The position numbers and the translations under genes are program-made. From assembly GCA_029567505.1 (NCBI GenBank), contig JAKPXO010000168.1, positions 2,828 to 66,827 of the forward strand: a DNA stretch of 64,000 nucleotides, in the 5' to 3' direction. Of this stretch, positions 17,238-35,985 are shown piece by piece. This DNA comes from Acidobacteriota bacterium. Its GTDB lineage: Bacteria > Acidobacteriota > Thermoanaerobaculia > UBA5066. The notes under the pieces were generated by a model that was given only the letters and a program-made list of their open reading frames with translations, was not told the origin of the DNA and searched no databases. The first letter of the stretch is position 1. Every line of letters begins with the position of its first letter.

Positions 17238-17247
17238 CTTTCGATTC

Positions 17248-18582
17248 CTACATCTTTGAGGGAGAGGCCGACGAGGCCGGGCCGGCGGACGGCATGGCCG
17301 GAGTCATCGCGCCGGAGCCGCGCTCCAGGGAAAGCTCGTCGAGGTCGGCCCGGGCCCGCAGGAGGCCGGCGAGCCGGCCCACCGCGGAGCGGCGGTCGGC
17401 GAAGTAGGTGCCAAGAGCCTCGAGGACGGAGACGAAGGGGACGGAGCCGGTGCGATAGCTCGCGAGCGCCGATTCGACGGAGAGCCGGTCCTGCTCGAGG
17501 AGGCCTTCGGCGTCGAGCCGGGCCTCGGCGGCGAGGCGGCGGAGGCGGACCAGGCGCTCTTCCGTCAGGGCCTCGACGAAGCGGCGCAGGGAGGCCTCGG
17601 TCGCGGCGGCGGCCGACGTGAGCCGTTCCGCTTCGGCGATGAGGGGGCGCTGCTTCCGTCCCGCCCAGAGCGGGACGGTGACACCGACGCTCGCGGACCA
17701 CATGAGGGGGAGACGGCCCCGGTTCATGTAGCCGGCGGAGGCGACGAAATCGGGCTTCAGGTTCCGGCGGGCGAGGTCGGCGCCCAGCCGCTCCCGCTCC
17801 TTCGCGAGCGCCGCCTCTCGAAGCTCCGGCGTCGCCTCGAGCGCGCGCGCGATCGACTCCCGGGTCGACGGGACGAGCAGCAGCTCACCCGGAACGAGCC
17901 GTGCCTCGGTCGGGACGGGCGCGTCCGCCGGGCGGTAGAGGAGCTGGCGGACCTCGGAGAGGGCGGTCTCCTCGGCCGCGCGGTCCGCCTCGCGCTGCTG
18001 GGCCAGCCGCGTCCGCTCGGCTTGCGCGCGAAGGACGTCCTGCTGCGTGGCGAGGCCCGCGGCGTAGCGGGCCCGGCTCACCTCCTCGATCCCCTTCCAG
18101 GTCGAGAGCTGCTCCTCGACGAGGCGGAGGTTCTCTCGGGCCTCGAGGAGGCCGGCGTAGGCGCGGCGGACGGCGCCCGTGAGCGAAAGGACCGCCCGGT
18201 CCGGGAGCGTGGCGGCCCGCTCGGCGTCCTTCGTGGCGATCTCCTCGGCGAGCCGGAGCTTCCCGGGGAACGGGAGCTGCTGCTCGGCCATCAGGGAGAG
18301 CCGCGTCATCTCCATCTCGCCCAGCGAGAAGGCCGTGCCGTCGTTCTCGTACGAGAGGGACACCATCGGGTCGGGGAGCGCGCCCGCGGGTCGGACCCGC
18401 TCACGTGCGGCGGACGCGAGGTCCCGCGCCGCGCGCAGCTCGGGGTTCTTCTCGAGGGCCTCCGCCACGAGGCGGTCCACCTCGGTGGACGCCGAGGCCT
18501 GGGCGTGGAGGAGCTGGATGGGGAGGAGCAGCAGGGCGGCCGAGAAGAGCGCCAGGCTTCGGCCACGCGGTCGTACGGGCAT
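17248..18582 (-). CDS. cusC: TolC-family outer-membrane efflux protein (CusC/CzcC-like)
   Basis: Signal peptide. Two outer-membrane-factor repeats with the typical coiled-coil composition. Confidence 0.85.
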   Translation of the reverse strand: MPVRPRGRSLALFSAALLLLPIQLLHAQASASTEVDRLVAEALEKNPELRAARDLASAARERVRPAGALPDPMVSLSYENDGTAFSLGEMEMTRLSLMAEQQLPFPGKLRLAEEIATKDAERAATLPDRAVLSLTGAVRRAYAGLLEARENLRLVEEQLSTWKGIEEVSRARYAAGLATQQDVLRAQAERTRLAQQREADRAAEETALSEVRQLLYRPADAPVPTEARLVPGELLLVPSTRESIARALEATPELREAALAKERERLGADLARRNLKPDFVASAGYMNRGRLPLMWSASVGVTVPLWAGRKQRPLIAEAERLTSAAAATEASLRRFVEALTEERLVRLRRLAAEARLDAEGLLEQDRLSVESALASYRTGSVPFVSVLEALGTYFADRRSAVGRLAGLLRARADLDELSLERGSGAMTPAMPSAGPASSASPSKM

Positions 18583-19230: not shown

Positions 19231-19905
19231 GTGAGGATCCTGGTCGTCGAGGACGACCCGAAACTGCTCGAGAGCGTCCGCAAGGGACTGAAGGAGGCTG
19301 GTTTCGGCGCCGACGGGGCCTCGGACGGGCGCGAAGGCCTCGAGCGAGCCCTGGAGGACGACTACGACGCGCTCGTCCTCGACGTCATGCTCCCCGGACT
19401 TTCCGGTCTCGACGTCCTTCGCGAGCTCCGGAAGCGGCGCCGGGCGACGCCCGTCCTCGTCCTGAGCGCCCGCTCGGCCGTCGAAGATCGCGTCCGCGGC
19501 CTGGACCTCGGCGCGGACGACTACCTCGCCAAGCCCTTCAGCTTCGCGGAGCTGCTGGCGCGACTCCGGGCGATCACGCGCCGCCCCGCCGTCGAGCCGC
19601 AGACCGTCCTCTCGGCCGGCGATCTGACGGTCGACACCGTCCGGCACGAGGCGCGGCGGGGGGGGCAGCTCCTCGAGCTGACCCCGAAGGAGTTCTCGCT
19701 CCTCGAGTACCTGGCGCGGCGAAAGGGGGTCGTCCTGACGCGGGCCATGATCCTCGACCACGTCTGGGACCTCGACTACGACGGCGGCTCGAACCTCGTC
19801 GAGGTCTACGTCAACTACCTCCGGAAGAAGGTCGACGCGGGGCACGAGGTGAAGCTCATCCACACGGTGCGCGGGGCCGGCTACGTCCTCAGGGAGCCGT
19901 CGTGA
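19231..19905 (+). CDS. cusR: OmpR-family heavy-metal response regulator (CusR/CopR-like)
   Basis: REC domain with a winged-helix output domain (LTPKEFSLLEYLARRKGVVLTR). It is divergent from cusCBA. Confidence 0.9.
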   Translation: MRILVVEDDPKLLESVRKGLKEAGFGADGASDGREGLERALEDDYDALVLDVMLPGLSGLDVLRELRKRRRATPVLVLSARSAVEDRVRGLDLGADDYLAKPFSFAELLARLRAITRRPAVEPQTVLSAGDLTVDTVRHEARRGGQLLELTPKEFSLLEYLARRKGVVLTRAMILDHVWDLDYDGGSNLVEVYVNYLRKKVDAGHEVKLIHTVRGAGYVLREPS

Positions 19906-21320
19906 CCCGGCGCCCGGTCTCCTTCCGGACCCGGCTCGCCCTCGTCTACTCGGGGATCCTCGCCGCGGTCCTCGGCCTCAGCGGCGCCGGGCTCTACTTC
20001 GTCGTCCGCGCCCAGATGATCCGCCACCACGACGGGGAGCTCGCCGAGACCGCCGCCGCCGTCGAGAAGGTCCTGGCGCAGCACGAGGACTGCGCGGACC
20101 TGACGCCCGGGCAGGTGCAGGAGCTGAACCGGTACTCGAAGCTCGTCCTCTTCCACTCGGCCGGCGGGCAGCCCGACGTCTTCTACAGGTCCCCGGACGT
20201 CGCCTCGGTCCCCGGCGCGAGGGAGCTCGCGGCGCGGCCGGAGCTCCTCGAGGAGAGCCCGGGCTATCGGATGTTCGTCGAGGGGCACGACCAGGTCCGC
20301 GTCTACTCCGTCCCGTACCGCTCGCGGGCGGGACGCCGCGGGGTGATCCGGGTGATGGAGCGGATGGGCGACGTGGAGCTGCCGCTCCGGAACCTCCGGC
20401 TGGGGCTCCTCCTCCTCGCTCCCGCGGCGATCGCGCTCTCCGCGATCGTGACGTGGTCGCTTGCCCGGCGCGCACTCGCCCCCGTGGTCGAGGTGACCGC
20501 GCTCGCGCGTGAGATCGAGGCGACGCAGCTCAGCCGGCGGCTCCCCGCCCCGGCCGTGCCGGACGAGATCGGCCGTCTCGTCGAGACGTTCAACCAGATG
20601 ATCGCGAGGCTCGAGTCGTCGTTCGAGGCGATGAAGCGATTCACCGCCGACGCCTCGCACGAGCTCCGGAGCCCGCTCGCGAACGTGAAGAGCACCGTGG
20701 AGCTCGCGCTCGACCGGCCTCGCTCGGACGAGGAGTATCGCTCGGCCCTCGCGAGCGTGGGCGAGGAGGCCGAGCGGCTCCGCCGGATCGTCGAGGACCT
20801 GCTCCTCCTCGCCCGGGCCGACTCGGGCCGCCTCCCGTTCGAGAAGGAGGAGGTCCGCCTCGACGTCCTCGCCCGGGAGGTCGTGGAGTCGTTCGGCCCG
20901 CGCGCCGCGGAGGCCGGGTTGCTGCTCGAGGTCACCGCCGAGCCGGGGACCGTCGTCCTCGGCGACGAGCGCTGGCTCCGGCAGCTCGCGCAGAACCTCG
21001 TGGAGAACGCGGTCCGGTTCTCGCCGCCGGCCGGAGACGGCCTGACTGCGCCCGTAGTGGCGGTCGGCGTCGCGGTCGACGGCCCGATGGCCGTCTTCAC
21101 GGTCGACGACGAGGGGCCCGGGATTCCCGAAGGAGAGCGCAGCCGAGTCTTCGAGCGCTTCTACCGTGTCGACGCCGCGCGCCGTCGGGGAGCCGACACG
21201 GGCGCCGGCCTCGGGCTCGCCATCTGCGCGTGGATCGTCGACGTGCACGGAGGGACGATCGAGGCGCTGGGCCGGGAGGGGTCAGGAACGCGGATGCGCG
21301 TTCGCTTGACGCGGGCTTGA
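19902..21320 (+). CDS. cusS: heavy-metal sensor histidine kinase (CusS/CopS-like)
   Basis: GTGA overlap with cusR. Two TM segments, a HAMP domain, an H-box (ADASHELRSPL) and HATPase motifs (GxGLGL). Confidence 0.9.
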   Translation: MTRRPVSFRTRLALVYSGILAAVLGLSGAGLYFVVRAQMIRHHDGELAETAAAVEKVLAQHEDCADLTPGQVQELNRYSKLVLFHSAGGQPDVFYRSPDVASVPGARELAARPELLEESPGYRMFVEGHDQVRVYSVPYRSRAGRRGVIRVMERMGDVELPLRNLRLGLLLLAPAAIALSAIVTWSLARRALAPVVEVTALAREIEATQLSRRLPAPAVPDEIGRLVETFNQMIARLESSFEAMKRFTADASHELRSPLANVKSTVELALDRPRSDEEYRSALASVGEEAERLRRIVEDLLLLARADSGRLPFEKEEVRLDVLAREVVESFGPRAAEAGLLLEVTAEPGTVVLGDERWLRQLAQNLVENAVRFSPPAGDGLTAPVVAVGVAVDGPMAVFTVDDEGPGIPEGERSRVFERFYRVDAARRRGADTGAGLGLAICAWIVDVHGGTIEALGREGSGTRMRVRLTRA

Positions 21321-21558: not shown

Positions 21559-23352
21559 TCAGTCCTCCCGGCCCGGCGTCGCGCCACCGGGCGCGTCGGG
21601 ACGAGGTGCAGCCGAAAGTGCCTGCCCGGTCACCGAGCCCGTCGCAGTGGTGTTCCACCACGTCCCACCCGGACCGAAGAAGCCCTTCAGGATCGTGGCC
21701 GTCTCCTTGTCGCTCAGCTCGTTCCACTTCGAGAAGTTGTCGTTCGTGAACGAGGTGTTGAAGTTGAGGGGCCGGCCTCCGTGGCAGCTCGCGGCACAGG
21801 AGCTCGGCATCCCGCCCTTTTCCTGGTAGAGGAGGGTCTTCTCCGGCGGGATGGCCTCCATCGTGTGCGAGACCTCGTCGTACGACCAGTCGCGCTTCGC
21901 CGTCCTCGGCATGTGGCAGGTGATGCAGTTCGACTGCCCGAGAGTCATCTCCGGCGTATAGGCGTGGAAGGTGTGCGCGCCGACGACCTGGGCGATCTCC
22001 GCCTTGTTCTGCTCGTAGGCGCCGACCTTGGCGACCGTCAGCGCCTTGAACGGGCCGAAGCCGGCGTGGCACGAGAGGCACAGCGTGTTGTTCGTGAAGC
22101 TCGTGGCGATGGCGTTCTTCTCCGTGACGGGGAGGCCGCGCTCACCGCTGTGAGGGTTGTGGCAGTCCGAGCAGGTCACCGTGTGGAACGGGTTCGTGAA
22201 GTGAGCGCTGACCATGTGGGACTGGTACTGCTGCTCGCCCTTCGTCGGGGTCTTGCCGTCGGGCCAGCGCCCGCCCTCGTCGTGCAGGTACTTGAAGACG
22301 TCGTCCCCGATCTGGTACGGCTTGTCGGCCGTCTCGTCGTAGGGATAGTCGTGGAGGCCGCCCGGAACGGAGAGCCCGCGGGTGTGGCACTGGGCGCAGA
22401 GCCAGGTCTGCTGCTGCTTCGTCAGGGAGGCGGGGTTGAGGATCTTCGTCTTGTCGCCGCCGGCGAGGATGTGGAGGGAGCCCGGCCCGTGGCACGACTC
22501 GCACGAGACCCCCATGAACTGCTTCGTGCCGTCCTGGTTGAGGTCGGCGTAATGGCGGTCGGTTCCGGAGTACAGGACGACCGTCGGCGCCTTGACCCAC
22601 CATTCTCCGGTCGCCGTCTTGCCGACCTTGTAGCCCGTGACGTGGCAGCCGACGCAGCTCTTCGTCCAGTTCCGGCCGATGGCCGCGACCGCCGCTGCCG
22701 TCATTCCGGGGACGATCTTCGGCTTCCCGTCGGCGGCCCACCACTTGTCCGCGTTGTAGAGGGCGTACTCGCGGTAGCGGGGCGAGTAGGCGAACGGCAG
22801 CATGTAGATCGACTGCGTCATCCCGCCGGGTCCGTCGGTGACGGGAATCCGCACCATGAGGCGCTGCTGGTAGTACCCCCCCTGCTTGATCCCGACGGTG
22901 AGAGTGAGGGAGCCGATGGTGACCCGGTAAGGGTACGGAGCCCCCGCGACGAAGCTCAGGACGGGCGCGTTCGGCTTGTAGACGTCGAAGGGGGACGCGA
23001 TCTTGTTGAAGTCGAGCCCCTCCTTGAAGTCGTCCTCGCCGTTCTTGTTCCCGTCGAAGATGATCCCCTTGTCGGGCAGCATCGAGCCGAGGTCGTCCGG
23101 GACCGTCGCGTGCATCGTCGCGTGGGCGCTCGTCCTCCAGGAGGCGTAATCCCTGTGGCAGGCGATGCAGGTCTCCGGGCCGACGTACATCGCCGTCTCC
23201 GCGGCCTGCGGGGCCATACGGCTCTTCACGAGGGCGACGACCCTAGCCTGCTCCGAGGCCGGGACCACCTCGCGTTTCCCCGCCGATGCCGGGAGCGCAG
23301 AGACGCCGAGCGCCACGACGGCCCCGGCGAGGACTACTCTCGGGAATCGCAT
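21559..23352 (-). CDS. multihaem c-type cytochrome (about 8 haem motifs)
   Basis: Start taken at MRFPRVVLAGAVVALGVSALPASA (signal peptide, RBS GGAGAGGAGAG). Haem motifs are CIACH, CVGCH, CESCH, CAQCH, CSDCH, CLSCH and CITCH, plus a CAASCH variant. Confidence 0.8.
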   Translation of the reverse strand: MRFPRVVLAGAVVALGVSALPASAGKREVVPASEQARVVALVKSRMAPQAAETAMYVGPETCIACHRDYASWRTSAHATMHATVPDDLGSMLPDKGIIFDGNKNGEDDFKEGLDFNKIASPFDVYKPNAPVLSFVAGAPYPYRVTIGSLTLTVGIKQGGYYQQRLMVRIPVTDGPGGMTQSIYMLPFAYSPRYREYALYNADKWWAADGKPKIVPGMTAAAVAAIGRNWTKSCVGCHVTGYKVGKTATGEWWVKAPTVVLYSGTDRHYADLNQDGTKQFMGVSCESCHGPGSLHILAGGDKTKILNPASLTKQQQTWLCAQCHTRGLSVPGGLHDYPYDETADKPYQIGDDVFKYLHDEGGRWPDGKTPTKGEQQYQSHMVSAHFTNPFHTVTCSDCHNPHSGERGLPVTEKNAIATSFTNNTLCLSCHAGFGPFKALTVAKVGAYEQNKAEIAQVVGAHTFHAYTPEMTLGQSNCITCHMPRTAKRDWSYDEVSHTMEAIPPEKTLLYQEKGGMPSSCAASCHGGRPLNFNTSFTNDNFSKWNELSDKETATILKGFFGPGGTWWNTTATGSVTGQALSAAPRPDAPGGATPGRED

Positions 23353-23597
23353 CAGTCTCTCCTCTCCTTCCGTGAGCAGCCGCTCCCTCGTCGACGGAAC
23401 GCGCGGTTCCCGCCTCGCCTCACTCAGGCGGATGCCAGGCGTTCCCGGGCGCACGTAAAGAGAGAATGGCGCTCCATATCGTTTTTCATAATGAACTGCG
23501 AGATACGGAGCTGCATGATGCGAACGCACCAATTTCGCGGAGGGACGGGCTCCCGTGCGCCTCCGGTATCCTCAGGAAGGCCGCGGCCACGATCCTG

Positions 23598-24371
23598 ATG
23601 CACCTCGTGCTCTTCGCTCTCGCTTCGTTCTTCGCGTCGGGGCTCACGCTCTTTTCCGGCTTCGGCCTCGGGACGATCCTCCTGCCCGTCTTCGTCCTGT
23701 ACCTGCCCGTGGACACGGCGGTCGCGCTGACCGCGATCGTCCATCTCGCCAACAGCCTCCTGAAGGTCGGATTCCTCGGCCGCCACGCCGACAGGTCGGT
23801 CGCGCTTCGTTTCGGGGTGCCCGCCGTCCTCGCCGCTCTGGTGGGTGCGTGGGCCCTCCTCTCGCTCGCCAAGGCCCCTCCGCTCTTCTCCTGGACCCTC
23901 GGCGACAGGCTCCTGCACGTCGAGCCCATCAAGCTGGCGGTCGCGGTCCTGATGGTCGCCTTCGCGCTCCTCGAGCTCTCTCCCCGCTTCACCGCCTGGG
24001 CGGTCCCCCCCCGCTGGCTCCCGGTGGGAGGCGCTCTGGCCGGATTCTTCGGAGGACTCTCGGGCCACCAGGGGTCGCTGAGGACGGCCTTCCTGTCGCA
24101 CTGCGGCCTCACGAAGGAGGCGTTTCTCGGCACGGGCGTCGTCATCGCCTGTGCCGTCGACGTGGCGCGCCTCGGCGTCTACGCGCCACGCCTCGCCTCG
24201 GGCGGGCTCGCAGGACATGGTCTCAAGGTCGCGGTCGCGACCGGAGCCGCCTTCCTCGGTGTCTGGTCCGCGAACCGGCTGCTCCCCAGGGTCACGCTCC
24301 GGGGCGTGAGACTCGTCGTAGCGGTCGCCCTCGTCGTCCTCGGTGTCGCCATGGGGGTCGGCCTCGTCTGA
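23598..24371 (+). CDS. TauE/SafE-family permease (sulfite/anion exporter-like)
   Basis: Start MHLVLFALASFF within track ORF 23466..24371. An 8-TM glycine-rich repeat architecture typical of TauE/SafE. Confidence 0.75.
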   Translation: MHLVLFALASFFASGLTLFSGFGLGTILLPVFVLYLPVDTAVALTAIVHLANSLLKVGFLGRHADRSVALRFGVPAVLAALVGAWALLSLAKAPPLFSWTLGDRLLHVEPIKLAVAVLMVAFALLELSPRFTAWAVPPRWLPVGGALAGFFGGLSGHQGSLRTAFLSHCGLTKEAFLGTGVVIACAVDVARLGVYAPRLASGGLAGHGLKVAVATGAAFLGVWSANRLLPRVTLRGVRLVVAVALVVLGVAMGVGLV

Positions 24372-24447
24372 GAGCTCCCTCCGCCAGCGACCTCGACCGG
24401 GGTCGGCTCCAGGACGGGTCGCGCTCCCGGCCCGCTGCTAGACTCCT

Positions 24448-24864
24448 GTGATGAGCAGGCTGGACCCCGACCCGCTGGACCGCGAAGTCCTGCTGGCCTT
24501 TTGGAAGGTCCACATCCTCCATCACGCGTCGAAGGGGCCCGTCTACGGGCTCTGGCTGGTCCAGGAGCTCGCCGAGCACGGCTACCGGCTGAACCCTGGC
24601 ACGCTCTATCCGGTCCTCGACCGGATGGAGCGGAACGGATGGCTCCTGTCGGAACGAGCGCGTGAAGATCACATCCGGAGCCGCCGCTCCTACACCATCA
24701 CGGCGGAGGGCCACGCGGTCCTCGACCGGCTGCGCGGATTCGTCGAAGAGCTGCACCGCGAGGTCTCCGAACGGGCCGAGAGGAAGCGGAGCGCTCCGAA
24801 GGGACGCGCGCCCGTCCAGACGGCGCCGACGCGGGCGCGGGCGACAGGTCGCCCGCGCGCCTGA
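24448..24864 (+). CDS. PadR-family transcriptional regulator
   Basis: Winged-helix signature HGYRLNPGTLYPVLDRMERNGWL. Confidence 0.75.
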   Translation: MMSRLDPDPLDREVLLAFWKVHILHHASKGPVYGLWLVQELAEHGYRLNPGTLYPVLDRMERNGWLLSERAREDHIRSRRSYTITAEGHAVLDRLRGFVEELHREVSERAERKRSAPKGRAPVQTAPTRARATGRPRA

Positions 24865-24944
24865 CCGGGCCGGCCGTCCGGCGCTCGCCGGCTCGCGCTC
24901 CCGGTCGCGACCCGGGACCCCCGGGCTCCTCACAGCGTCGAGAT

Positions 24945-24960
24945 TGATGCGCGCGCATCA
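24945..24960. promoter_or_regulatory. 16-bp perfect palindrome TGATGCGCGCGCATCA between padR and the barrel gene
   Basis: Self-complementary sequence ~90 nt upstream of the barrel-gene ATG, flanked by the AT-richer CGATTCATTTCGATATCG. Confidence 0.3.
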
Positions 24961-25051
24961 TTCCGAGCAGCGGATCGCGGAACTACGATTCATTTCGATA
25001 TCGGTTTTCGAGTTAGCGGGCGGCCCGGCCGCGCGCTTTCGGGGAGAGACG

Positions 25052-26929
25052 ATGAGCACTGGCCCTCGCGCGGCTCCCCTTCTCGCCGCGCTCCTTCTCA
25101 CCGGCGCGCCGCAGCTGGCCCTCGTCGCCGCGGGCCCGACCGTCAAAGGATCGGTTTCCGTGGGAATCGCCGGCACCTCGACCTCCGGGTCGGCGGAGGC
25201 GTTCAAGAGCCAGTTCTTCCTGGGCGAGGGCTTCTTCCTCGAAGGACTCTCGCTCTCGGCGCTCGGGGCGGACGGCCGCGAGAAGCTGAACGTCTCGGCC
25301 TGGGGCTTCGGCGGGGCCGAGCCGGCCCAGGCGGCGCGCCTTTCCTGGCTGCCGAACGACCGCTGGAAGCTCGACCTCGAGTATGACAAGCGCTGGTCGT
25401 TCCTCGGTCTCGCGGAGGCCGACGTCGGTTCCCGATCGGACCTCTGGCGGATCGAGCGCTGGCGCGGCTCGCTGAGCTGGGACGGCCCCTCATGGGGGAA
25501 GCTCTCCCTCCGACTTCGACGTAACGATCGGCGCGGTACCGTCCACCAGACGTTCTTCGGCCTCAACGAGCCCAACCCTCTCCGTGTCGAGCTCGACGAG
25601 TCCTTGACCGAGGCCGCGATACGCTTCGAGACGAAGGCCGATGGGCCGTTCCACCTCTCGGTCGAGCCCTCCTACGGCGTCTTCGAACGGAAGAACCGCT
25701 GGTTCCCCGACGGCTCCGGCGTCGACCCGGACGTCCTCACCGACGTCGCTTCGAGCCGCGAGGACGAGCAGACGATTCCCGGCGCTCGCGCCGCGGCCTC
25801 CTATCGGATCGAGCGCTTCGAGGCCGTCGCGAACGTCCTCTGGAGCGGCTCGGAGCTCGACGTCACGGGGGACCGGTCGGCAGGCTGGAGCGTGGGCGGC
25901 GGCTCGATCGGAACGGTCGAGGACGTCGACAGGACGATCGGCTCGGCCAGCCTCGACACCCTCGCCGGCAACCTGCGCCTCGGCATCGGCCTCGGGGGCG
26001 GCTTCGTCCTCCGGATCACCGGTGACGCCCGCGACCGCACGACCGACTCCACGCTCCTCGGCGAACGGCTCCTCCGCATCTCGAACGCCGGAAGCACGCT
26101 CGAGCTCCCGAGCGTCGTGGACGAATCCGCCCTGTTCGACACCCGCGACCTCATGGGGCGGGCCGAGCTCGCCTTCGAGACGCCTCGTTTCGGTGCCTGG
26201 GTCGGGGGGTTCCTCGCCTCGCGCGAAGTGTCGTGGAGGGCGACGAGCGCCGATGCCCTCGCCGACGTCACGAGGGACACCGAAGGCCTCGCCGCGGGCC
26301 TCAGCATCGTCCTTCCCGCCCGGCTCCGTCTCAACGTCGATTACGAGCACGGCTCCTTCACCGACTACGTCTTCCGCACTGACCCCGAAGCCGTCGACCG
26401 CATCCGCGGCCGCCTCCGCGGTGAGCTCGGCGGCGGCTTCTCGGCCGCTCTACACGGGCGATACGAGAAGGCGGACACCCCCCCATCCGTGGCCCACCTC
26501 GACCGCAAGAACACGTCCGGCGGCCTCTCTCTGGCCTGGGACGCCCCGAAGGGGGCTCATGGCGCTTCTTTCGACGTCGAAGCCGTCGACCTGACGAGCG
26601 AGACCGGAATCGTCTTTCCCGGGTTCGGCGGCGCCACGACGCGGGGGACGTCTGTCTACGACCTTTCCCTTCTCACGCTCACCGCATCGGCCCGCACGGG
26701 ATTCGGCCCCGTGACGCTGAGCCTCGACGGCACGCGCGTCGAGGACCGCGGCGAGACCTGGCCGGCGCGCGCGTGGACGGCGCAGGCGCGACTGTCCGTG
26801 AAGCTACCCGCGTCCGTCGAGGCCTCTGCCTTCGTCCAGTACTGGAAGTACGACGAGGATCGCGCCGACCGTGACGACTACCGTGCCGCGCGCTACGGCC
26901 TCGTCCTCCGTTGGGAGCTCCCCAAGTGA
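25052..26929 (+). CDS. outer-membrane beta-barrel protein, candidate porin partner of the decahaem cytochrome (MtrB/PioB-like role)
   Basis: Signal peptide MSTGPRAAPLLAALLLTGAPQLALVAA. 625 aa with an alternating beta-strand pattern rich in G/S/T/D/R. The stop overlaps the GTG of the next gene. Confidence 0.7.
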   Translation: MSTGPRAAPLLAALLLTGAPQLALVAAGPTVKGSVSVGIAGTSTSGSAEAFKSQFFLGEGFFLEGLSLSALGADGREKLNVSAWGFGGAEPAQAARLSWLPNDRWKLDLEYDKRWSFLGLAEADVGSRSDLWRIERWRGSLSWDGPSWGKLSLRLRRNDRRGTVHQTFFGLNEPNPLRVELDESLTEAAIRFETKADGPFHLSVEPSYGVFERKNRWFPDGSGVDPDVLTDVASSREDEQTIPGARAAASYRIERFEAVANVLWSGSELDVTGDRSAGWSVGGGSIGTVEDVDRTIGSASLDTLAGNLRLGIGLGGGFVLRITGDARDRTTDSTLLGERLLRISNAGSTLELPSVVDESALFDTRDLMGRAELAFETPRFGAWVGGFLASREVSWRATSADALADVTRDTEGLAAGLSIVLPARLRLNVDYEHGSFTDYVFRTDPEAVDRIRGRLRGELGGGFSAALHGRYEKADTPPSVAHLDRKNTSGGLSLAWDAPKGAHGASFDVEAVDLTSETGIVFPGFGGATTRGTSVYDLSLLTLTASARTGFGPVTLSLDGTRVEDRGETWPARAWTAQARLSVKLPASVEASAFVQYWKYDEDRADRDDYRAARYGLVLRWELPK

Positions 26930-27744
26930 AGTCCACCCTTCTTGCCTTCGCCTTCCTCATCTCTCCCGCCGCGCTGGGTGAGCCCGTCGACGCGGCCACC
27001 TGCGCCGCCTGCCACGAGGACGTCGCCTCCGCGTTCGCGCGCGGCCCGCACGGCGCCGCGATGGCGAGACGGAGCCCGAAGGTCTTGTCCTCCTCGTGCG
27101 TCCGCTGCCACGGCGACGGAAAGGCCCACGCCGAGGACCCGAAGGCGGAGAACGTCTCCCGAGCTCCCGCCCCCGGCGCCTGCCTTTCCTGCCACGCGGG
27201 CTCGGGAACCACCCCCCTGACGGATCCCGCCCACGCCCGGGGCCAGGTCGGCTGCCTCTCGTGCCATGCCTCGGGCCACACGGCGCCGGCGGCCGCGCCG
27301 CTCCTTCGAGCGTCCTCCCACGAGCTCTGCGGCGGGTGCCACGCGACCCAGCGGAACGCCTCGAAGCTCGCGTACTCCCACCGCGACGGCTCGCGCCCCT
27401 TCGACTGCACGAGCTGCCACTCGGCTCACGGAAAGTCCCGCATCGGGCGCCTCGCCCTGCTCGGCAACGGCGGCCCCTGCCTCGACTGTCACTCCGAGAA
27501 GGCCGGCCCCTGGGTCTTCGCCCACCCGCCGCGAGAGACCGGCGGCTGCGTCTCCTGCCACCAGCCCCACGGCTCCACGAACCCGCGGCTCCTGGCACGA
27601 CGGGCGGTCGCCCCGCTCTGCCTCGAGTGCCATTCGGGCCTGCCCTCATCCCACAACCCGGCATCGGCCCGCTACCGGAACTGCATCTCGTGCCATCGCG
27701 CCGTCCACGGCTCGAACCACGAGCCGAGGCTCTTCGAGGATTGA
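26926..27744 (+). CDS. periplasmic decahaem c-type cytochrome (MtrA/DmsE/PioA-like)
   Basis: GTG start in the GTGA overlap. Signal peptide MKSTLLAFAFLISPAALG. Ten CxxCH motifs: CAACH, CVRCH, CLSCH x2, CGGCH, CTSCH, CLDCH, CVSCH, CLECH, CISCH. Confidence 0.85.
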   Translation: MKSTLLAFAFLISPAALGEPVDAATCAACHEDVASAFARGPHGAAMARRSPKVLSSSCVRCHGDGKAHAEDPKAENVSRAPAPGACLSCHAGSGTTPLTDPAHARGQVGCLSCHASGHTAPAAAPLLRASSHELCGGCHATQRNASKLAYSHRDGSRPFDCTSCHSAHGKSRIGRLALLGNGGPCLDCHSEKAGPWVFAHPPRETGGCVSCHQPHGSTNPRLLARRAVAPLCLECHSGLPSSHNPASARYRNCISCHRAVHGSNHEPRLFED

Positions 27745-27884
27745 GGGGAGCCCCCGGACCCCGGCACGTGGCGAGGCCCGCCGGGTTCCTTCTTCATGAC
27801 GAGGCGAAGCCTGTAAAGATCGATCCCGCCGGACTCCTCCTTCGGGTCGACGCGCAATCCGGAAGAACGAATCCACCCGGCGGG

Positions 27885-28298
27885 ACGATGGGGCGGGGGG
27901 TCGAAAGGCCCCCTCTTCCTTCGCTTCCCGCGGGGTTCGACGTCCGGCCCGCGCCCCCCTGCGGGACCTGCACGATCCGGCTCGTCGACCTCGCGTACCA
28001 ACGAGCCCCATGGTTCCGTCTCGTCCGTGAGCCGTTCCGCGTCGGAATGCTCGCGCTCTCCCGGCTCCACGGGATCGACCCGACGACGTACGCCGTGAGA
28101 ACCGAAGCCTGCCGCGGCTGTCTCCGCTTCACCAAGGCCGTCCTGAAGGATCGCTCTGCCCTCTTCCGGCTCCTGAACCGGGTCGTCAACCCGTTCTTCG
28201 ACGCGATCCTCGAGCGGATCGTGGGTGCGCAGGCCGTGGCCGACGCGAAGGAGCATGCGCGGCGCGCGACCGCAGGGGAACCGTCCGGATCGCAGTAA
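27885..28298 (+). CDS. hypothetical protein with two CxxC pairs
   Basis: GC3-biased frame ending at the stop shared with track ORF 27096..28298. Contains CGTC...CRGC and LFRLLNRVVNPFFDAILERIVG. The start is uncertain. Confidence 0.35.
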   Translation, partial: TMGRGVERPPLPSLPAGFDVRPAPPCGTCTIRLVDLAYQRAPWFRLVREPFRVGMLALSRLHGIDPTTYAVRTEACRGCLRFTKAVLKDRSALFRLLNRVVNPFFDAILERIVGAQAVADAKEHARRATAGEPSGSQ

Positions 28299-28448
28299 GC
28301 GAAGGCCCCCGGAGGACCCGGGATGCGTGACGTCGACGTGATCGAGAGCCGGGAGACCGACGTCCGGACCGTTCGGCGCGGACGCTCGACACCGCGTGGT
28401 ACGCGGCGCTTCGAGCCGGGCGAAGGGGCCGTGCTACCCTCCGCCCCC

Positions 28449-28817
28449 ATGACCGGGCGCCGGTGCCGAGCACTGCTCCTTCTCGCCGCGGGATGGCTCC
28501 TGCCGGCGGCGTTCTCGGCCGCGCTCATCCTGCACGAGATCGACCACGCGAACGATCCGGGTGCTCCGAGCGCCGCGGAGGCGCTCTTCCACGGACACCT
28601 CCATGCGGACGGCGAGGCGGGGCACCAGCACGCGTTCGTCGGGTCGCCGGACCTCGTCCGGTGCGGGGCGCGTTCGGCGATCGCCGCTCCGCCGTCCACG
28701 GCGGAAAGCCTCGCGCTGGCGCCCGCTGCGCCGCCCCGTGCGACGGTGGCACGGAGGGCCGAGCCCGACCCGGGCGGCCCGTCCCGGCAAGCCTTGCTGG
28801 CCACCTTCCGGATCTGA
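28449..28817 (+). CDS. small His-rich periplasmic hypothetical protein preceding czcCBA
   Basis: ATG within track ORF 28323..28817. A hydrophobic N-terminus is followed by HEIDHANDP and HGHLHADGEAGHQHAF. Confidence 0.45.
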   Translation: MTGRRCRALLLLAAGWLLPAAFSAALILHEIDHANDPGAPSAAEALFHGHLHADGEAGHQHAFVGSPDLVRCGARSAIAAPPSTAESLALAPAAPPRATVARRAEPDPGGPSRQALLATFRI

Positions 28818-28883
28818 GACCCACGGCCGCGGCCGAGAGGCTGCCCGTCCGCTCTCGTTCCCCGTTTCCGAGAGGAGGACCCC

Positions 28884-30122
28884 GTGACGTCCCGATTCCC
28901 GCTGCGCGCTTCGGCCGCGCTCCTCTTCCTCCTTCAGCCCGCCGCGCGGGCGGAGGAGCCTCTCTCCATCACGCAGGCGGAGCTCGTGGAGCGCGTGCTC
29001 GCGAGCGACCCGCGCCTCGCCGCGCTCGACGCCCGCGCCGCGGTCTCCCGGGCGGAGCCTCGCGCGGCGCGCCTGTGGACGAACCCCGCCCTCTCGGTCC
29101 GGCGCGAGTCGGTGTCGGAGGCCGGCGCATCCGCGGACGACACCTACCTCGAGCTGACCCTCCCTCTCGACGTCTCCGGCCGACGCGGGCTCCGGGCCGC
29201 GTCCCTCTCGGCCGGCGCGGAGGCCGTCTCGGGAGACGTGGAGGCGCGGCGCAACGAGCTCGTCCTCGGCGCCCTCGCGGCCTACCGCGACGCCGCCTGG
29301 GCCCGGGCCCGCGAGAGCGTCCTGCGAGAAGGGCGTGACGCCCTCGCCCGTGTGGCCACGGCCCTCCGGTCGCGACATTCGGAAGGCGATGTCTCGGGCT
29401 TCGACCTCGGACGCATCGAGACGGAGCGGGCCTCGTTCGACGACCTCCTCGCGGAGGCGACGACGGAAGCCGCGATCGCCGAAAGGGCCCTCGCGCGCGC
29501 GGCCGGGATTCCCGCCGGCGCGCTCCGGCCCGCGACGCCTCTGGAGGCGCCTGTTCTTCCCGACCCGTCCGCCACGCTCGTCTCAGACGCCCTCGCCTCG
29601 CGGGGGGAGCGGCGCGCCGCCGCGAGCCGCGTCCGCCAGGAGGAGGAGCTGGGCGTCGCGGCCGTGCGCGCCTGGATCCCCGGCTTCGAGCTCGGGGGCG
29701 GAGCGAAGTCGGTGAAGACCGCCGGCGAGACCGCCTCCGGCTGGGTGGCCGGGATCGGCCTGACCCTGCCGCTCTTCGACCGCGGGCAGGCCGAGAGGGA
29801 GAGGTCCCGCGCGCGGATCGCGGAGGCGAAGGCCGAGCTCGACGCGATCGACCGCCGGATCCGCGGCGAGGTCGAGGACGCCGCGACGCGCCTCGCCGAC
29901 GAGGTCTCCCGCCTTCACAACCTCGACACCGAGCAGTCCCCCCGTGCCGAAACGCTCGCCCGGCGCGCCGAGGTCGCCTTCAGCGAGGGCGAGATCGGCG
30001 CCTTCGAGCTGGCCGACGCCCACCGCACCGCCCGCGACGCCCGCCTGCGCGCTCTCGACGTGCGCCGGCAGGCGAGCCGCTCCGAGCTCGAGCTCTGGCG
30101 CGCCACCGGGAAGAGACCGTGA
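28884..30122 (+). CDS. czcC: TolC-family outer-membrane factor (CzcC-like)
   Basis: Signal peptide and OMF repeat architecture. First gene of the second RND operon. Confidence 0.8.
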   Translation: MTSRFPLRASAALLFLLQPAARAEEPLSITQAELVERVLASDPRLAALDARAAVSRAEPRAARLWTNPALSVRRESVSEAGASADDTYLELTLPLDVSGRRGLRAASLSAGAEAVSGDVEARRNELVLGALAAYRDAAWARARESVLREGRDALARVATALRSRHSEGDVSGFDLGRIETERASFDDLLAEATTEAAIAERALARAAGIPAGALRPATPLEAPVLPDPSATLVSDALASRGERRAAASRVRQEEELGVAAVRAWIPGFELGGGAKSVKTAGETASGWVAGIGLTLPLFDRGQAERERSRARIAEAKAELDAIDRRIRGEVEDAATRLADEVSRLHNLDTEQSPRAETLARRAEVAFSEGEIGAFELADAHRTARDARLRALDVRRQASRSELELWRATGKRP

Positions 30123-31687
30123 CGAGAGGACCCATGAACGACGACCGCCGCCTCAGAACGCCCCTTTCCCTCGCCCTCGCGGCCGTACTCCTGACCGGCG
30201 CCTGCGCGAAGACGAGCCACGAGGCCCACGACGAGCTCCCCGCCGTCCCGCTGACGGTCTGGACCGCGAAGACGGAGCTCTTCCTCGAGTACGAGCCGCT
30301 CGTCGCAGGGCGCGAGTCGCGCATGGCAGCCCACCTGACGGCGCTCGAGACGTTCCAGCCGCTCACCGAGGGCGTCGTCACGCTCCGACTCCGGATGGAA
30401 TCGGGCGAGGTGGTCACCGGAGAGGCGAAGGAGGCCGCACGCGCGGGGATCTTCCGGCCGAACGTGACTCCGGCGAAGTCCGGGAAGTGCCGCATCGAGG
30501 TCGAGGTCCGCGCTTCGAGCCTGACCGACCGCCTGGACGGCGGCGCCTGCGAGGTCTTCGCGGACGAGGCGGCCGCCCGGGCCGCGGCTGCCGAAGAGGA
30601 AGAGGCGGCCGGTGCCCGGATCGCGTTCCTGAAGGAGCAGCAGTGGAAGACCGACTTCGCGACGGCCCCGGCCGTCGAGCGCGACGCGCAGGCAACCGTC
30701 GAGGCGAGCGGGTCGCTCGTCCCGGTCGCCGGGCGCGAGGCACGTCTCTCGGCTCCCGCCTCGGGGCGCGTCGCGTTCGGCGAGACGGCTCCGGTGCCGG
30801 GAGCCTGGGTCCGCAAGGGCCAGCTCCTCGGCTGGATCTCGCCACGGCTCCCGGCCGGCAGCGACCGGCCGAGCCTCGAGGCCGAGATGCGGGCCACGGA
30901 GGCGGAGCGGGTCGCGGCCGATTCCCAGCTCGGCCGCGCGGAGCGGCTCCTCGCGGCAGAGGCGATCTCGAAGAGAGCCCACGAAGACGCGCAGGCGCGC
31001 GCGGCCGTCGCTCGCGCCCGAGCCTCGGCGGCCGCGGCGCGGGTCGCACAGTACGACGCCTCCGCCGGCTCGGGCTCGAGCACGGGCCTCTCCGGCCGGT
31101 TCGAGATCCGCTCGCCGCTCGACGGCACGCTCGTCTCGGTGGAGGCGGCCCCGGGCGAGATGGTGGAGGAGGGGCAGGCCCTCTTCCGTGTCGTCGACGC
31201 GGGGCGCGTCTGGCTGGAGGCCCGCGCGAACGAGGCCGACCTCTCGCGCCTCGAGGGGGCGAAGTCCGCCTGGTTCACCGTCGAGGGAGATGCCGCGCTC
31301 CACGAGGCCGGCCGCCTCCTCTCGTTCGGGCGGGTCGTCGATCCGGCGACGCGGACGGTCCCCGTCCTCTTCGCGGTCTCGAACGCGGACGGACGCCTCC
31401 GGGTCGGGCAGGCCGCGCGGGTCCGGCTCGCGACAGGCCCGTCCGTCCGCGCTCTCACGATCCCGGATTCGGCCGTCCTCGACGACGGCGGCAAGCCGGT
31501 GGCGTTCGTCCACGTCTCGGGGGAGGCCTTCGAGAGGCGCGTCCTCTCGCTCGGCGCGCCGGGAAAAGGCTGGGTCCAGGTCCTCGCGGGCCTCGCCCCG
31601 GGCGAGCGCGTCGTGACGAAAGGCGCGTACGAGATCAAGCTCGCCGCGGCCTCGGGCTCGATCCCGACGTCCGGCCACGTCCACTGA
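30119..31687 (+). CDS. czcB: RND periplasmic adaptor subunit (CzcB-like)
   Basis: GTGA overlap with czcC. Lipoprotein-like N-terminus (LLTGAC). HlyD-family coiled-coil and beta-barrel regions. Confidence 0.8.
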   Translation: MTRGPMNDDRRLRTPLSLALAAVLLTGACAKTSHEAHDELPAVPLTVWTAKTELFLEYEPLVAGRESRMAAHLTALETFQPLTEGVVTLRLRMESGEVVTGEAKEAARAGIFRPNVTPAKSGKCRIEVEVRASSLTDRLDGGACEVFADEAAARAAAAEEEEAAGARIAFLKEQQWKTDFATAPAVERDAQATVEASGSLVPVAGREARLSAPASGRVAFGETAPVPGAWVRKGQLLGWISPRLPAGSDRPSLEAEMRATEAERVAADSQLGRAERLLAAEAISKRAHEDAQARAAVARARASAAAARVAQYDASAGSGSSTGLSGRFEIRSPLDGTLVSVEAAPGEMVEEGQALFRVVDAGRVWLEARANEADLSRLEGAKSAWFTVEGDAALHEAGRLLSFGRVVDPATRTVPVLFAVSNADGRLRVGQAARVRLATGPSVRALTIPDSAVLDDGGKPVAFVHVSGEAFERRVLSLGAPGKGWVQVLAGLAPGERVVTKGAYEIKLAAASGSIPTSGHVH

Positions 31688-31701
31688 CGAGGCGGCCCGC
31701 C

Positions 31702-34700
31702 ATGATGGACCGCCTCATTCGCTGGTCGCTCCTCAACCGCCTCTTTGTCGTCGTCGCGGCGATCGCCGTCTCCCTCTACGGAGCGTTCACCGCGCTCCGT
31801 ATGCCCGTCGACGTCTTCCCCGACCTGACCGCGCCGACGGTCACCGTCCTGACGGAGGCCCACGGACTCGCGCCGCAGGAGGTCGAGACGCTCGTCACGT
31901 TCCCGATCGAGTCGGCGATCAACGGGGCGACCGGCGTCCGCCGCGTGCGGTCGGCCTCGGGCATCGGCATCTCGGTCGTCTGGGTCGAGTTCGACTGGGG
32001 GCGCGACATCTACGTCGCGCGTCAGGTCGTCAACGAGAGGCTCCAGCTCGTCGCGACCCAGATCCCTCCCGGCGTCGGGCCCCCGGCCCTCGCCCCGATC
32101 TCCTCGATCATGGGCGAGATCCTCTTCCTCGGCCTCGAGAGCGGCGTCCATTCGGGGCCCGAGCTGCGCGAGGCGGGCGACTGGGTCGTCCGCAAGCGAC
32201 TCCTCGCGCTTCCCGGCGTCGCGCAGGTCATCCCGATCGGCGGGGGCGTCAAGCAGTTCCAGGTCCTCGTCGAGCCGGGGAAGCTCCGCGCCCATGGCGT
32301 CACGTTCGAGGAGGTCGCCCGCGCCCTCGAGGAGTCGAACCAGAACACGAGCGGCGGGTTCCTCGTTCGCGGGCCCCAGGAGTGGCTCATTCGCGGTCTC
32401 GGCCGGATCGCCACGAACGAGGACGTCGCAAGGACCGTCGTGACCCAGCGGAACGGCGTCCCCGTCCTCGTCGGCCACGTCGCGAAGGTCGAGATCGGCC
32501 CGGCGCTGAAGCGGGGCGAGGGCTCGGCGAACGGCAAGCCCGCGGTCATCCTCGGCGTCCTCAAGCAGCCCGGTGCGAACACGCTCACGCTGACGGCCGA
32601 GGTCGATCGCGCCCTCGACGAGATTCAGCCAACGCTGCCGAGGGGTATGACGATCGAGCGCAAGCTCTTCCGTCAGGCCGACTTCATCCGCTCCGCCGTA
32701 AGGAACGTCTCGGTCGCGCTTCGCGACGGGGCGATCCTCGTCGCGATCATCCTCTTCTTCTTCCTCTTCAATTCCCGGACGACGCTCATCTCCCTCGTGG
32801 CGCTCCCCGTCTCGCTGATCGTCGCCGTCCTCGCCCTGAAGGCGATGGGGGCGACGTTCAACACGATGACGCTCGGGGGCCTTACGATCGCGATCGGCAG
32901 CCTCGTCGACGACGCGATCATCGACGTCGAGAACGTGTTCCGGCGCCTGCGTGAGAACCGCGCCCGGCCCCCCGAGGAGCGGGAGTCGGCCCGGGAGGTC
33001 ATCTACGCGGCGTCGACGGAGATCCGCGGCTCGATCGTCTTCGCGACGCTCATCGTCATGCTCGTCTTCGTCCCGCTCTTCTTCCTCACCGGCGTCGAGG
33101 GGCGGCTCCTCGCCCCTCTCGGCCTCGCCTATCTCGTCTCGATCTTCGCCTCCCTCGTCGTCGCCCTCACCGTCACGCCCGCGCTCTGCAGCTACTTCCT
33201 CGGCGACGCGAAGACGCTCGCGCACGGCGACAGCCTCCTCGTCCGCAAGCTCAAGGAGGCCTACCTCCCCTCGCTGAAGGCCGCCCTTCGGCACGGCAAG
33301 CTCGTCATGGCCGCGTCCGTCGTCCTCCTCCTCGGCGCGCTCCTCCTCGTTCCGTTCCTCGGCCGGACCTTCCTGCCGGAGTTCAACGAGGGAGCTCTCA
33401 CGCTGAGCGCCGTGACCCTTCCGGGGACCTCCCTCGAGGAGTCGGACAGGCTCGGGAGGCGCGTCGAGACGATCCTCCTCTCGCACCCCGAGGTGATCTC
33501 GACGGCGCGACGGACCGGCCGGGCCGAGCTCGACGAGCACGCGCAGGACGTCAACTCCGCCGAGATCGACGCGCGGTTCGAGCAGAAGGAACGGTCGAAG
33601 GACGAGTTCCTGAAAGCCCTCCGGGCCGACCTCGCGACGATCCCGGGGATGGTCATCCAGATCGGCGGGCCGCTCTCTCACCGGATCGACCACATGCTCT
33701 CCGGGACTCGCGCGAACATCGCCGTCAAGCTCTTCGGCGACGACATCTCCCAGCTCCGCTCGACCGCGGAGGAGATCCGCCGGGCGATGGAGAAGGTGGA
33801 GGGGATCGCCGACCTCTCCGTCGAGCAGCAGGTCGACATCCCGCAGCTCACCATCGCCTTCGACCGGGACCGGATCGCCCGCTACGGCCTTCGGGCCGGT
33901 CCGCTCGCCGAGACGATCGAGGCGGCCTACGCGGGCCGGAAGGTGACGCAGGTCCTCGAGAGCCAGCGGACGTTCGACGTCGTGATCCGGTACGAGGATT
34001 CGCACCGCGAGAGCGTCGAGGCCGTCCGGGCGACCCTCGTCGACACGCCGTCGGGCGCGAAGGTCCCGCTCGGGGCGCTCGCCACGATCCGCCAGGACGC
34101 GGGGCCGAACGTCGTGATGCGCGAGAACGCCCAGCGGCGCATCGTCGTCATGGCGAACATCGGCGGCCGCGACCTCGGGAGCGTCGTCGCCGACATCCGC
34201 GCCGCCGTGGCGCGCGACGTGAAGCTCCCCTCGGGCTACTACGTCGTCTACGGCGGCCAGTTCGAGAGCGAGGGGGAGGCGACGCGGACGATCGGGCTCC
34301 TCTCCCTCTTCGTCGTCGCCGGGATCTTCCTCCTCCTCTTCCTCGCCTTTCGCTCCGCCCGGACGGCGCTCCTCGTCATGGTGAACCTGCCGCTCGCCCT
34401 CATCGGCGGCGTCGTCGCCGTCAAGCTCGGCGGCGGCATCCTGAGCGTCGCCTCGCTCGTCGGCTTCATCACGCTCTTCGGCATCGCGACGCGCAACGGC
34501 ATCATGATGGTCTCCCACTACGAGCATCTCATGCACCGGGAGAAGGTCTCCTTCGACGAGGCGATCGAGCGCGGGTCGCTCGAGCGGCTCTCGCCGATCC
34601 TGATGACCGCCCTCTGCGCCGGCCTCGCCCTCATCCCGCTGGTCGTCGCCGGGGATCACCCCGGCAACGAGATCCAGGCGCCGATGGGGGTGGTCATCCT

Positions 34701-34812
34701 CGGCGGGCTCCTCTCTTCGACCGCCCTGAACATGCTGGTCCTGCCGGTCCTCTACCGGCGCTTCGCCCGGCCGCGCACGGGCGGCGAGCCCGCGGAGCCG
34801 ATCGAGGGCTGA
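31702..34812 (+). CDS. czcA: CzcA-type heavy-metal efflux RND permease
   Basis: MMDRLIRWSLLNRLFVVVAAIAVSLYGAFTALRMPVDVFPDLTAP... with the RND motifs LVDDAIIDVEN and DxxE. Confidence 0.95.
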   Translation: MMDRLIRWSLLNRLFVVVAAIAVSLYGAFTALRMPVDVFPDLTAPTVTVLTEAHGLAPQEVETLVTFPIESAINGATGVRRVRSASGIGISVVWVEFDWGRDIYVARQVVNERLQLVATQIPPGVGPPALAPISSIMGEILFLGLESGVHSGPELREAGDWVVRKRLLALPGVAQVIPIGGGVKQFQVLVEPGKLRAHGVTFEEVARALEESNQNTSGGFLVRGPQEWLIRGLGRIATNEDVARTVVTQRNGVPVLVGHVAKVEIGPALKRGEGSANGKPAVILGVLKQPGANTLTLTAEVDRALDEIQPTLPRGMTIERKLFRQADFIRSAVRNVSVALRDGAILVAIILFFFLFNSRTTLISLVALPVSLIVAVLALKAMGATFNTMTLGGLTIAIGSLVDDAIIDVENVFRRLRENRARPPEERESAREVIYAASTEIRGSIVFATLIVMLVFVPLFFLTGVEGRLLAPLGLAYLVSIFASLVVALTVTPALCSYFLGDAKTLAHGDSLLVRKLKEAYLPSLKAALRHGKLVMAASVVLLLGALLLVPFLGRTFLPEFNEGALTLSAVTLPGTSLEESDRLGRRVETILLSHPEVISTARRTGRAELDEHAQDVNSAEIDARFEQKERSKDEFLKALRADLATIPGMVIQIGGPLSHRIDHMLSGTRANIAVKLFGDDISQLRSTAEEIRRAMEKVEGIADLSVEQQVDIPQLTIAFDRDRIARYGLRAGPLAETIEAAYAGRKVTQVLESQRTFDVVIRYEDSHRESVEAVRATLVDTPSGAKVPLGALATIRQDAGPNVVMRENAQRRIVVMANIGGRDLGSVVADIRAAVARDVKLPSGYYVVYGGQFESEGEATRTIGLLSLFVVAGIFLLLFLAFRSARTALLVMVNLPLALIGGVVAVKLGGGILSVASLVGFITLFGIATRNGIMMVSHYEHLMHREKVSFDEAIERGSLERLSPILMTALCAGLALIPLVVAGDHPGNEIQAPMGVVILGGLLSSTALNMLVLPVLYRRFARPRTGGEPAEPIEG

Positions 34813-35981: not shown

Positions 35982-35985
<4 letters not shown>
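34900..35985 (+). CDS. HlyD/MacA-like periplasmic adaptor of ABC efflux system
   Basis: N-terminal anchor. Coiled-coil hairpin, lipoyl and beta-barrel motifs (IRAPIAGVVANV). Confidence 0.8.

Follow-up and report, generated by a model that had tools for sequence, protein, structure and literature searches.

The stretch of DNA analysed here, referred to as the window, comprises 64,000 nucleotides (G+C ~71%) of contig JAKPXO010000168.1 from an Acidobacteriota bacterium (assembly GCA_029567505.1, positions 2,828 to 66,827 of the forward strand). It contains two overlapping genes, one for a predicted outer-membrane β-barrel protein, which we call B, and one for a periplasmic decahaem c-type cytochrome, which we call A. 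Upstream of this pair lie genes for a PadR-family regulator and a TauE/SafE-family permease and, on the opposite strand, the gene for a multihaem cytochrome, C' (Table 1). Below, we describe the two proteins and the conservation of their genes, and we suggest that they are the probable core of an MtrAB-type electron conduit across the outer membrane.

Table 1. Features of the B-A locus, in positions of the window.
Feature	Position	Strand	Remarks
C', OcwA-type octahaem cytochrome, 597 aa	21559..23352	-	7 CxxCH + 1 CxxxCH; likely cell-surface electron outlet (predicted)
TauE/SafE-family permease	23466..24371	+	lineage-specific; PF01925 E 5e-18, match from residue 51
Second motif copy, ATATCGTTTTTC	23476..23487	+	divergent C'/tauE-padR promoter region
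Degenerate palindrome copy, TGATGCGAACGCACCA	23516..23531	.	3 mismatches; divergent C'/tauE promoter region
PadR-family regulator	24448..24864	+	lineage-specific neighbour; PF03551 E 4.4e-20, 71.9 bits (cut-off 27)
Perfect 16-bp palindrome, TGATGCGCGCGCATCA	24945..24960	.	padR-B spacer; unique in window; weak operator candidate
Conserved 16-mer motif, ATATCGGTTTTCGAGT	24998..25013	+	39 bp upstream of B start; candidate operator/promoter element
B, outer-membrane β-barrel (predicted), 625 aa	25052..26929	+	no haem, no cysteine; remote MtrB/PioB/GSU2204-type sheath
A, periplasmic decahaem c-type cytochrome, 272 aa	26926..27744	+	MtrA/DmsE type; coupled to B via GTGA
Terminator-like hairpin, weak	27769..27787	+	3' of A; probable end of B-A transcription unit

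B begins with the hydrophobic leader MSTGPRAAPLLAALLLTGAPQLALVAAG... and contains 0 cysteines. The AlphaFold2 model based on the family alignment has a predicted local distance difference test score (pLDDT) of 88.8 and a predicted template-modelling score (pTM) of 0.80; with the exception of the disordered leader (residues 1-27) it is all-β, with ~26-28 strands and no plug domain. When this model was compared with solved structures using Foldseek, MtrB was matched with an E-value of 1.8e-14 and template-modelling (TM) scores of 0.71/0.68, while all other structures had TM scores of at most 0.49, and B superposes on the 26-strand MtrB across 540 residues. Moreover, the consensus C-terminus of the B family is ...W-x-F with the Phe being terminal in about half of the loci, a pattern typical of the outer-membrane β-signal.

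The B family is small: a search of 5.8 billion proteins yielded 23 clusters (90% identity), whose members have neither a Pfam domain nor an informative name. When 1.84 billion cluster representatives (50% identity) were searched exhaustively with a profile, 390 relatives were identified, ~56 of them close. Among curated families, NF041027, the GSU2204 family, is matched by 13 of the 23 B-family members (best E 5.9e-8) and gives B itself only 13.4 bits against a cut-off of 350; this family is listed as an MtrB/PioB-family outer-membrane barrel in a 2026 review (PMC13188914). A more distant group of 38 relatives aligns with the B family over 607 columns with an hhalign probability of 100% (E 1.6e-63), and in this group the GSU2204 family matches 19 members and, marginally, PF11854 (MtrB_PioB) six and TIGR03509 one. 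We conclude that B has diverged within the MtrB/PioB/GSU2204 barrel superfamily and belongs to a branch beyond the curated models.

A contains exactly 10 CxxCH motifs and 0 variant motifs (haems were counted as CxxCH motifs plus the variant CxxxCH), and its N-terminus, MKSTLLAFAFLISPAALG, resembles a signal peptide when read by eye. It matches TIGR03508 over nearly the entire profile (positions 3-257 of 258) with 170.5 bits, i.e. under the cut-off of 192.2 bits; the second-best family is NF041028 with 120 bits (cut-off 325), while models of the NrfB/NrfH families score only 30-41 bits (NrfB 30). Similarly, the best match in the PDB is MtrA (6r2q_A; E 3.8e-24) with all haem motifs colinear, as compared to an E-value of 2e-3 for NrfB. 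Many relatives with 45-58% identity to A have been labelled "DmsE family decaheme c-type cytochrome" by the Joint Genome Institute. Thus, by sequence comparison, A is an MtrA/DmsE homologue rather than a protein of the NrfB/NapC type.

The two genes are coupled in that the TGA stop codon of B (26927-26929) overlaps the GTG start codon of A (26926-26928) in a GTGA junction, and the same pair of products, again overlapping by 4 bases, was predicted independently on identical metagenome contigs. To this extent, the original prediction, which had been made from the letters of the window, stands as it was written: it named a 625-aa barrel gene with a leader, its GTGA coupling to the next gene and a decahaem cytochrome with exactly ten CxxCH motifs, and the model of B is a confident, plug-less β-barrel with MtrB as its best solved match, while A groups with MtrA/DmsE. 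The expected match to curated profiles is found for A, under the cut-off; no MtrB/PioB model matches B.

Related loci, of which 31 are from a species-representative genome collection and the others are metagenome contigs, reveal that the pair is usually part of a three-gene module. In 27 of the 36 loci used for counting gene order (L003-L038), the order is barrel, 10-haem cytochrome (~280 aa) and 7+1-haem cytochrome (~600-630 aa), here referred to as C, and most of the others end at a contig edge. The barrel stop codon overlaps the decahaem start codon (ATGA, GTGA, TGATG or TAATG) in 33 of 39 loci, the window included. Synteny and stop/start overlap hold across ~38 loci with 32-80% identity. 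Because both the ten-haem count and the B-A coupling are conserved in these related loci, they are far beyond chance. The barrel-first order, which had been described as a non-canonical arrangement of two genes, is real for a barrel with a decahaem partner; it is, however, the rule and not the exception in the B-A-C family, and the full module has three genes. The distant barrel P0066 has kept the B-A-C order, while the more MtrB-like P0100 is in a locus with the canonical order NapC-like, decahaem and barrel, suggesting that the switch in order tracks the divergence of the barrel family. Of the loci from the genome collection, 29 are assigned to Holophagae, Holophagales, Thermoanaerobaculia, Thermoanaerobaculales, Thermoanaerobaculaceae or unclassified Acidobacteriota, and two are named only "bacterium". 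The closest ones are metagenome-assembled genomes (MAGs) of Holophagales with ~80% identity, in agreement with the Acidobacteriota-like lineage that had been suspected.

The third component has the fold of OcwA with an extra β-rich domain of ~170 residues between haems 1 and 2. The cytochrome with ~8 haems noticed earlier on the opposite strand of the window, C', belongs to this family and, judged by sequence identity, is a paralogue of the octahaem gene that usually comes after A. Specifically, L003, in which the barrel is 77% identical to B, has both octahaem paralogues (10743-12584 and 13670-15463), one after the decahaem gene and one divergent from padR; C' is 82% identical to this PadR-linked second copy and 42% identical to the BA-linked copy. 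Thus, the pairing of PadR with the C' paralogue recurs in L003. Because L003 has both paralogues, we suggest that the lineage of the window lost the adjacent octahaem gene and moved the B-A pair beside padR. In other words, the arrangement in the window appears to be a derived variant, in which the adjacent octahaem gene is gone and the PadR-linked paralogue is upstream.

Three lines of evidence suggest that the octahaem family works outside the cell. Among the 120 best octahaem homologues, ~20 have a C-terminal sorting domain of the type IX secretion system (T9SS), and where a source is named, it is Chlorobi or candidate division KSB1. In a Thermoanaerobaculum sp. MAG (L044 1-4921), genes for a secretin (Secretin_N + Secretin) and two N-methyl pseudopilins are directly upstream of the B-A-C module, a type II secretion neighbourhood that may serve specifically to export the outer cytochrome. 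Finally, OcwA is a cell-surface cytochrome with iron-reducing activity (PMC7829351). OcwA-related cytochromes of Acidobacteria already appear in published trees. In addition, a T9SS-tagged octahaem homologue in L042 (7001-12243) adjoins another putative porin-cytochrome set consisting of a 394-aa unknown protein and two multihaem cytochromes; thus, OcwA-type outlets seem to occur together with different kinds of outer-membrane core.

We suggest that the B-A pair is the core of an MtrAB-type trans-outer-membrane electron conduit, probably functioning in metal or humic reduction, and we assign this reading a probability of roughly 0.7. In this model, the cysteine-free barrel B with its ~26 strands would form an insulating sheath in the outer membrane. 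A, translated from the same mRNA by stop/start coupling, would thread B as a ten-haem wire and, in this way, connect the periplasm to the cell surface. An OcwA-type octahaem cytochrome would dock at the outer mouth of the barrel and pass electrons on to an extracellular acceptor; in the relatives, this outlet would be encoded by the gene after A, and in the window it is probably the paralogue C'. An inner-membrane quinol dehydrogenase, whose genes would lie elsewhere, would supply the electrons, and their flow would most likely be outward, with reduction of Fe(III)/Mn(IV) minerals, humic quinones or further acceptors that are insoluble or impermeant. The folds, homologies, haem counts, synteny and coupling were observed here, while complex formation, localisation, direction, acceptor and regulation are inferences.

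Several observations weigh against this model. B matches neither PF11854 nor TIGR03509 in searches of Pfam and NCBIfam, and TIGR03509 is matched by 0 of the 23 B-family members at E-values up to 1. Searches of the PDB with profiles of the B family and of the distant relatives did not match the MtrB sequence and, therefore, the link between B and MtrB rests on fold together with transitive or marginal evidence from hidden Markov models; also, the DSSP strand count of B is approximate (26-28). For the octahaem cytochrome, an ordinary signal peptide is found and no lipobox, and its surface location is consequently deduced from homologues only. A tblastn search of the window 3' of A for a remnant of the adjacent octahaem gene recovered only the upstream paralogue C'. 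Moreover, the window has no candidate for an inner-membrane multihaem or quinol-dehydrogenase protein; only two open reading frames (ORFs) in the 64 kb have at least three CxxCH motifs. All loci are from uncultured sources, the 31 loci of the genome collection all being MAGs and the rest metagenome contigs. Finally, the sequence does not settle the direction of electron flow because MtoAB and PioAB run the same core inward.

This last point leads to the alternative that the B-A core takes up electrons from Fe(II), a mineral or a cathode, as in MtoAB/PioAB, with the octahaem cytochrome functioning as an extracellular oxidase or a periplasmic relay. In line with this idea, MtoAB and PioAB, which conduct electrons the other way, are homologous to MtrAB and are not set apart as a clade of their own (PMC8805035). 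Also, in some relatives the module adjoins genes for Rieske/cytochrome b and for a cytochrome bd-like oxidase with a fused cytochrome c, and nearby genes for Fur and TonB receptors link it to iron. However, MtoAB and PioAB function without an extracellular cytochrome, while the B-A family nearly always has one, and the uptake hydrogenase beside the module in L041 fits H2-driven reduction. Those Holophagae and Thermoanaerobaculia in culture that have a metal phenotype are, as far as is known, reducers. OcwA, the closest solved relative of the octahaem cytochrome, is described as a cell-surface, iron-reducing protein (PMC7829351). We consider inward flow unlikely. Even less probable, in our view, is a DmsEF-like function, in which the conduit would feed a surface octahaem cytochrome that reduces a soluble nitrogen or sulfur oxyanion (nitrite, hydroxylamine, sulfite or tetrathionate); here, the octahaem cytochrome is taken as a relative of NrfA, octahaem nitrite reductase and MccA. 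Lastly, the co-location of the two genes could be incidental, B being a generic porin or transporter and A an NrfB/NapC-like relay with partners in the cytoplasmic membrane. The missing match of B to the curated MtrB/PioB models is compatible with this scenario. By contrast, MtrB is the best fold match of B by a clear margin, A is far nearer to MtrA than to NrfB, and the strict synteny with stop/start overlap across the ~38 loci effectively excludes it; we regard it as highly improbable.

The proposed conduit shares features with several known systems and differs from each of them. With MtrCAB of Shewanella (6R2Q), it has a homologous A and a common fold of B. However, the gene order is mtrC-mtrA-mtrB in that system (PMC8805035) and B then A in the window family, and the outlet is MtrC/OmcA-like in the former and an OcwA-type octahaem cytochrome in the latter; also, as described, B is not seen by PF11854 or TIGR03509, and A scores under the TIGR03508 cut-off (170.5 vs 192.2). 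With respect to gene order and predicted three-part architecture, the B-A-C family matches the OmbB-OmaB-OmcB system of Geobacter, although only the porin and the periplasmic cytochrome are adjacent in the window. The Geobacter operon has the order porin, periplasmic cytochrome and outer cytochrome; OmaB is an octahaem cytochrome and OmbB a porin of ~20 strands. The proteins of the two systems are unrelated: here, the partner is an MtrA-type decahaem cytochrome, the barrel superposes on MtrB over 540 residues and is not a smaller porin, and the outlet is OcwA-like without a lipobox. The OmbB-OmaB-OmcB complex is named for Geobacter sulfurreducens in PMC12307469. The only curated families with a sequence signal for B are those of the Geobacter pair GSU2204/GSU2203 (OmcK), i.e. 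NF041027/NF041028, with scores far under the cut-offs of 350/325 bits. Unlike B, which has no cysteine, proteins of the GSU2204 family have a CXXCH or selenocysteine motif. In Geobacter, hematite and magnetite induced both genes of this uncharacterised pair.

There are 9 haems in OcwA of Thermincola potens (6I5B) and 11 in OmhA of Carboxydothermus ferrireducens (6QVM), and both proteins have monoderm hosts. By contrast, the octahaem cytochrome in the window has 8 motifs, and the window family pairs this type of protein with an outer-membrane barrel and a wire and adds the β-rich domain. Most likely, an OcwA-type surface cytochrome, so far characterised only in Gram-positive iron reducers, is combined here with a wire and a barrel of the Shewanella type. 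In Acidobacteriota, porin-cytochrome clusters have been reported as MtrCAB Group 5 in Bryobacterales (PMC8805035), as EET1 and EET2 in peat Terriglobia (bioRxiv 10.64898/2026.05.27.727921) and as porin-cytochrome complexes of Holophaga S7 (PMC7399161). These clusters are alike in the idea of a sequence-divergent porin-cytochrome system, but they are from Terriglobia or are homologous to MtrB or ExtB by sequence. PCC3/PCC4 of iron oxidisers have other haem numbers and components than the B-A-C module. In the literature searched, we found no description of a module consisting of a barrel, a decahaem and an OcwA-like octahaem cytochrome in Holophagae or Thermoanaerobaculia.

Sediments, aquifers and soils commonly contain Holophagae and Thermoanaerobaculia, among which there are metal reducers. 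To our knowledge, their extracellular electron-transfer machinery has not been characterised. Because B is unassigned and A falls under the cut-off, surveys with MtrB/MtrA markers would miss the module and under-count electron-transfer capacity in Acidobacteriota. A core of the MtrAB type that can be combined with a non-MtrC, OcwA-type outlet would also widen the known modularity of such conduits, and, with only three genes, B-A-C is a compact set of parts for tests in heterologous hosts. Overall, we grade the significance as moderate: the module is a solid, testable candidate that is not surprising in principle, and its practical weight comes from the missing model assignment. We speculate that these proteins define a distinct, Holophagae/Thermoanaerobaculia-centred class of conduit, with an MtrAB-type core and an OcwA-type outlet with the extra β-rich domain, that possibly carries most of the respiration of metals or humics in these bacteria and, in the lineage of the window, was rewired under a PadR-type regulator responsive to small molecules (e.g. 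phenolics or metals) in a metal-efflux island; in this full form, the idea is rather doubtful.

With respect to regulation, the PadR and TauE/SafE genes listed in the original prediction are present where they had been placed; together with the palindrome, however, they accompany the module only in the lineage of the window and are outside the conserved module. PadR also scores 99 bits with NF053635 (Rv3488 family), under the cut-off of 140. We rejected TauE as a component of the module because its gene is not conserved beside the module in other loci. The first ~100-130 bases of the tauE ORF (23466-23600) are AT-rich and hold both promoter motifs; because of this AT-rich start and because the PF01925 match begins only within the protein, translation probably begins at the in-frame ATG at 23598 instead.

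The perfect palindrome TGATGCGCGCGCATCA, which had been noted in the promoter region, is indeed present upstream of B and unique in the window. We do not, however, accept it as strong evidence for a PadR operator because, with the exception of the near-identical contigs L001 and L002, no relative has it upstream of the barrel gene and because perfect 16-bp palindromes are not rare: the window has 9, as compared to a mean of 4.8 in first-order Markov simulations of the window. The probability of finding one by chance inside the 187-bp padR-B spacer is roughly p = 0.02-0.03, which makes its position there just mildly unlikely, and matches to the palindrome at up to 3 mismatches number 3 vs 0.33 expected. 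On sequence grounds, the motif ATATCGKTTTTC, which was picked out by eye, is a better operator candidate. It occurs exactly twice in the 64 kb (0.04 expected), at 24998, 42 bp upstream of the B start, and at 23476, and the 16-mer ATATCGGTTTTCGAGT is also found upstream of padR in L003, where the surrounding DNA is poorly alignable. The shared promoter motif and PadR suggest that B-A and C' form one locally rewired regulon in a metal-efflux-rich region. A scan of 23300-28900 for sigma-70-type promoters found none, such a scan being uninformative for Acidobacteriota. Terminator-like sites in the window are no commoner than in shuffled sequence, and the hairpin 3' of A is, therefore, weak evidence for the end of the transcription unit. 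A 24-bp inverted repeat with 11-bp arms (GCGCGGGCGACAGGTCGCCCGCGC, 24835-24858), longer than the 16-bp palindrome, lies in the last codons of padR and may form a hairpin between padR and the barrel gene.

Other loci have other regulatory features. CRP-like palindromes (TGTGA-N6-TCACA; TGTGAATTGATTCACA, TTGTGAAGTATTTCACAA) are found upstream of the barrel gene in L010 (7795-7810), L011 (6043-6058) and L015 (3437-3454), which are from Thermoanaerobaculia or unclassified Acidobacteriota, and hint at control by the CRP/FNR family rather than by PadR in these loci. In L004 (7308-7775), L006 (6997-7464) and L007 (3390-3857), the gene for a Fur-family regulator is divergent and just upstream of the module, a placement that suggests iron-responsive control in Thermoanaerobaculia; the same three loci have genes for TonB-dependent receptors and for a cytochrome bd-like subunit fused to a c-type cytochrome near the module.

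The respiratory surroundings of the module also differ between loci. In L005, genes for a NapC/NirT-like cytochrome, a 23-haem cytochrome-b fusion and a sigma-54 two-component system are near the module. In L041 (82-20907, on a 4.74-Mb contig), genes for an uptake-type NiFe hydrogenase and its maturation flank the module, and these are accompanied by genes for a Rieske protein, a cytochrome b and a 606-aa multihaem cytochrome and then by genes for a NapC-like cytochrome and a cytochrome b; this region looks like a full respiratory island. The NapC-like, cytochrome-b-fused and Rieske/cytochrome b neighbours in the relatives are plausible quinol-side partners. In L003, type VI secretion system VgrG and PAAR genes lie upstream.

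In the window, the flanks are rich in metal-efflux genes (12415-18582 on the minus strand; 19231-21320, 28884-34812 and 34900-39172 on the plus strand), including those for a CusB-like protein with a heavy-metal-binding domain, two TolC-like proteins, an OmpR/histidine-kinase pair, a CzcCBA-like resistance-nodulation-division system and a MacAB-like ATP-binding cassette system. A role of the module in metal detoxification, as suggested by these Cus/Czc-type genes, was not adopted because the efflux context is absent from the relatives. Between A and the czcC-like gene are two ORFs on the plus strand (27888-28298 and 28323-28817) without a match in Pfam, one encoding a protein with four cysteines (CGTC...CRGC) and the other a His-rich protein (HEIDHAND..HGHLHADGEAGHQH); they could encode metal-binding accessory proteins of the efflux operon.

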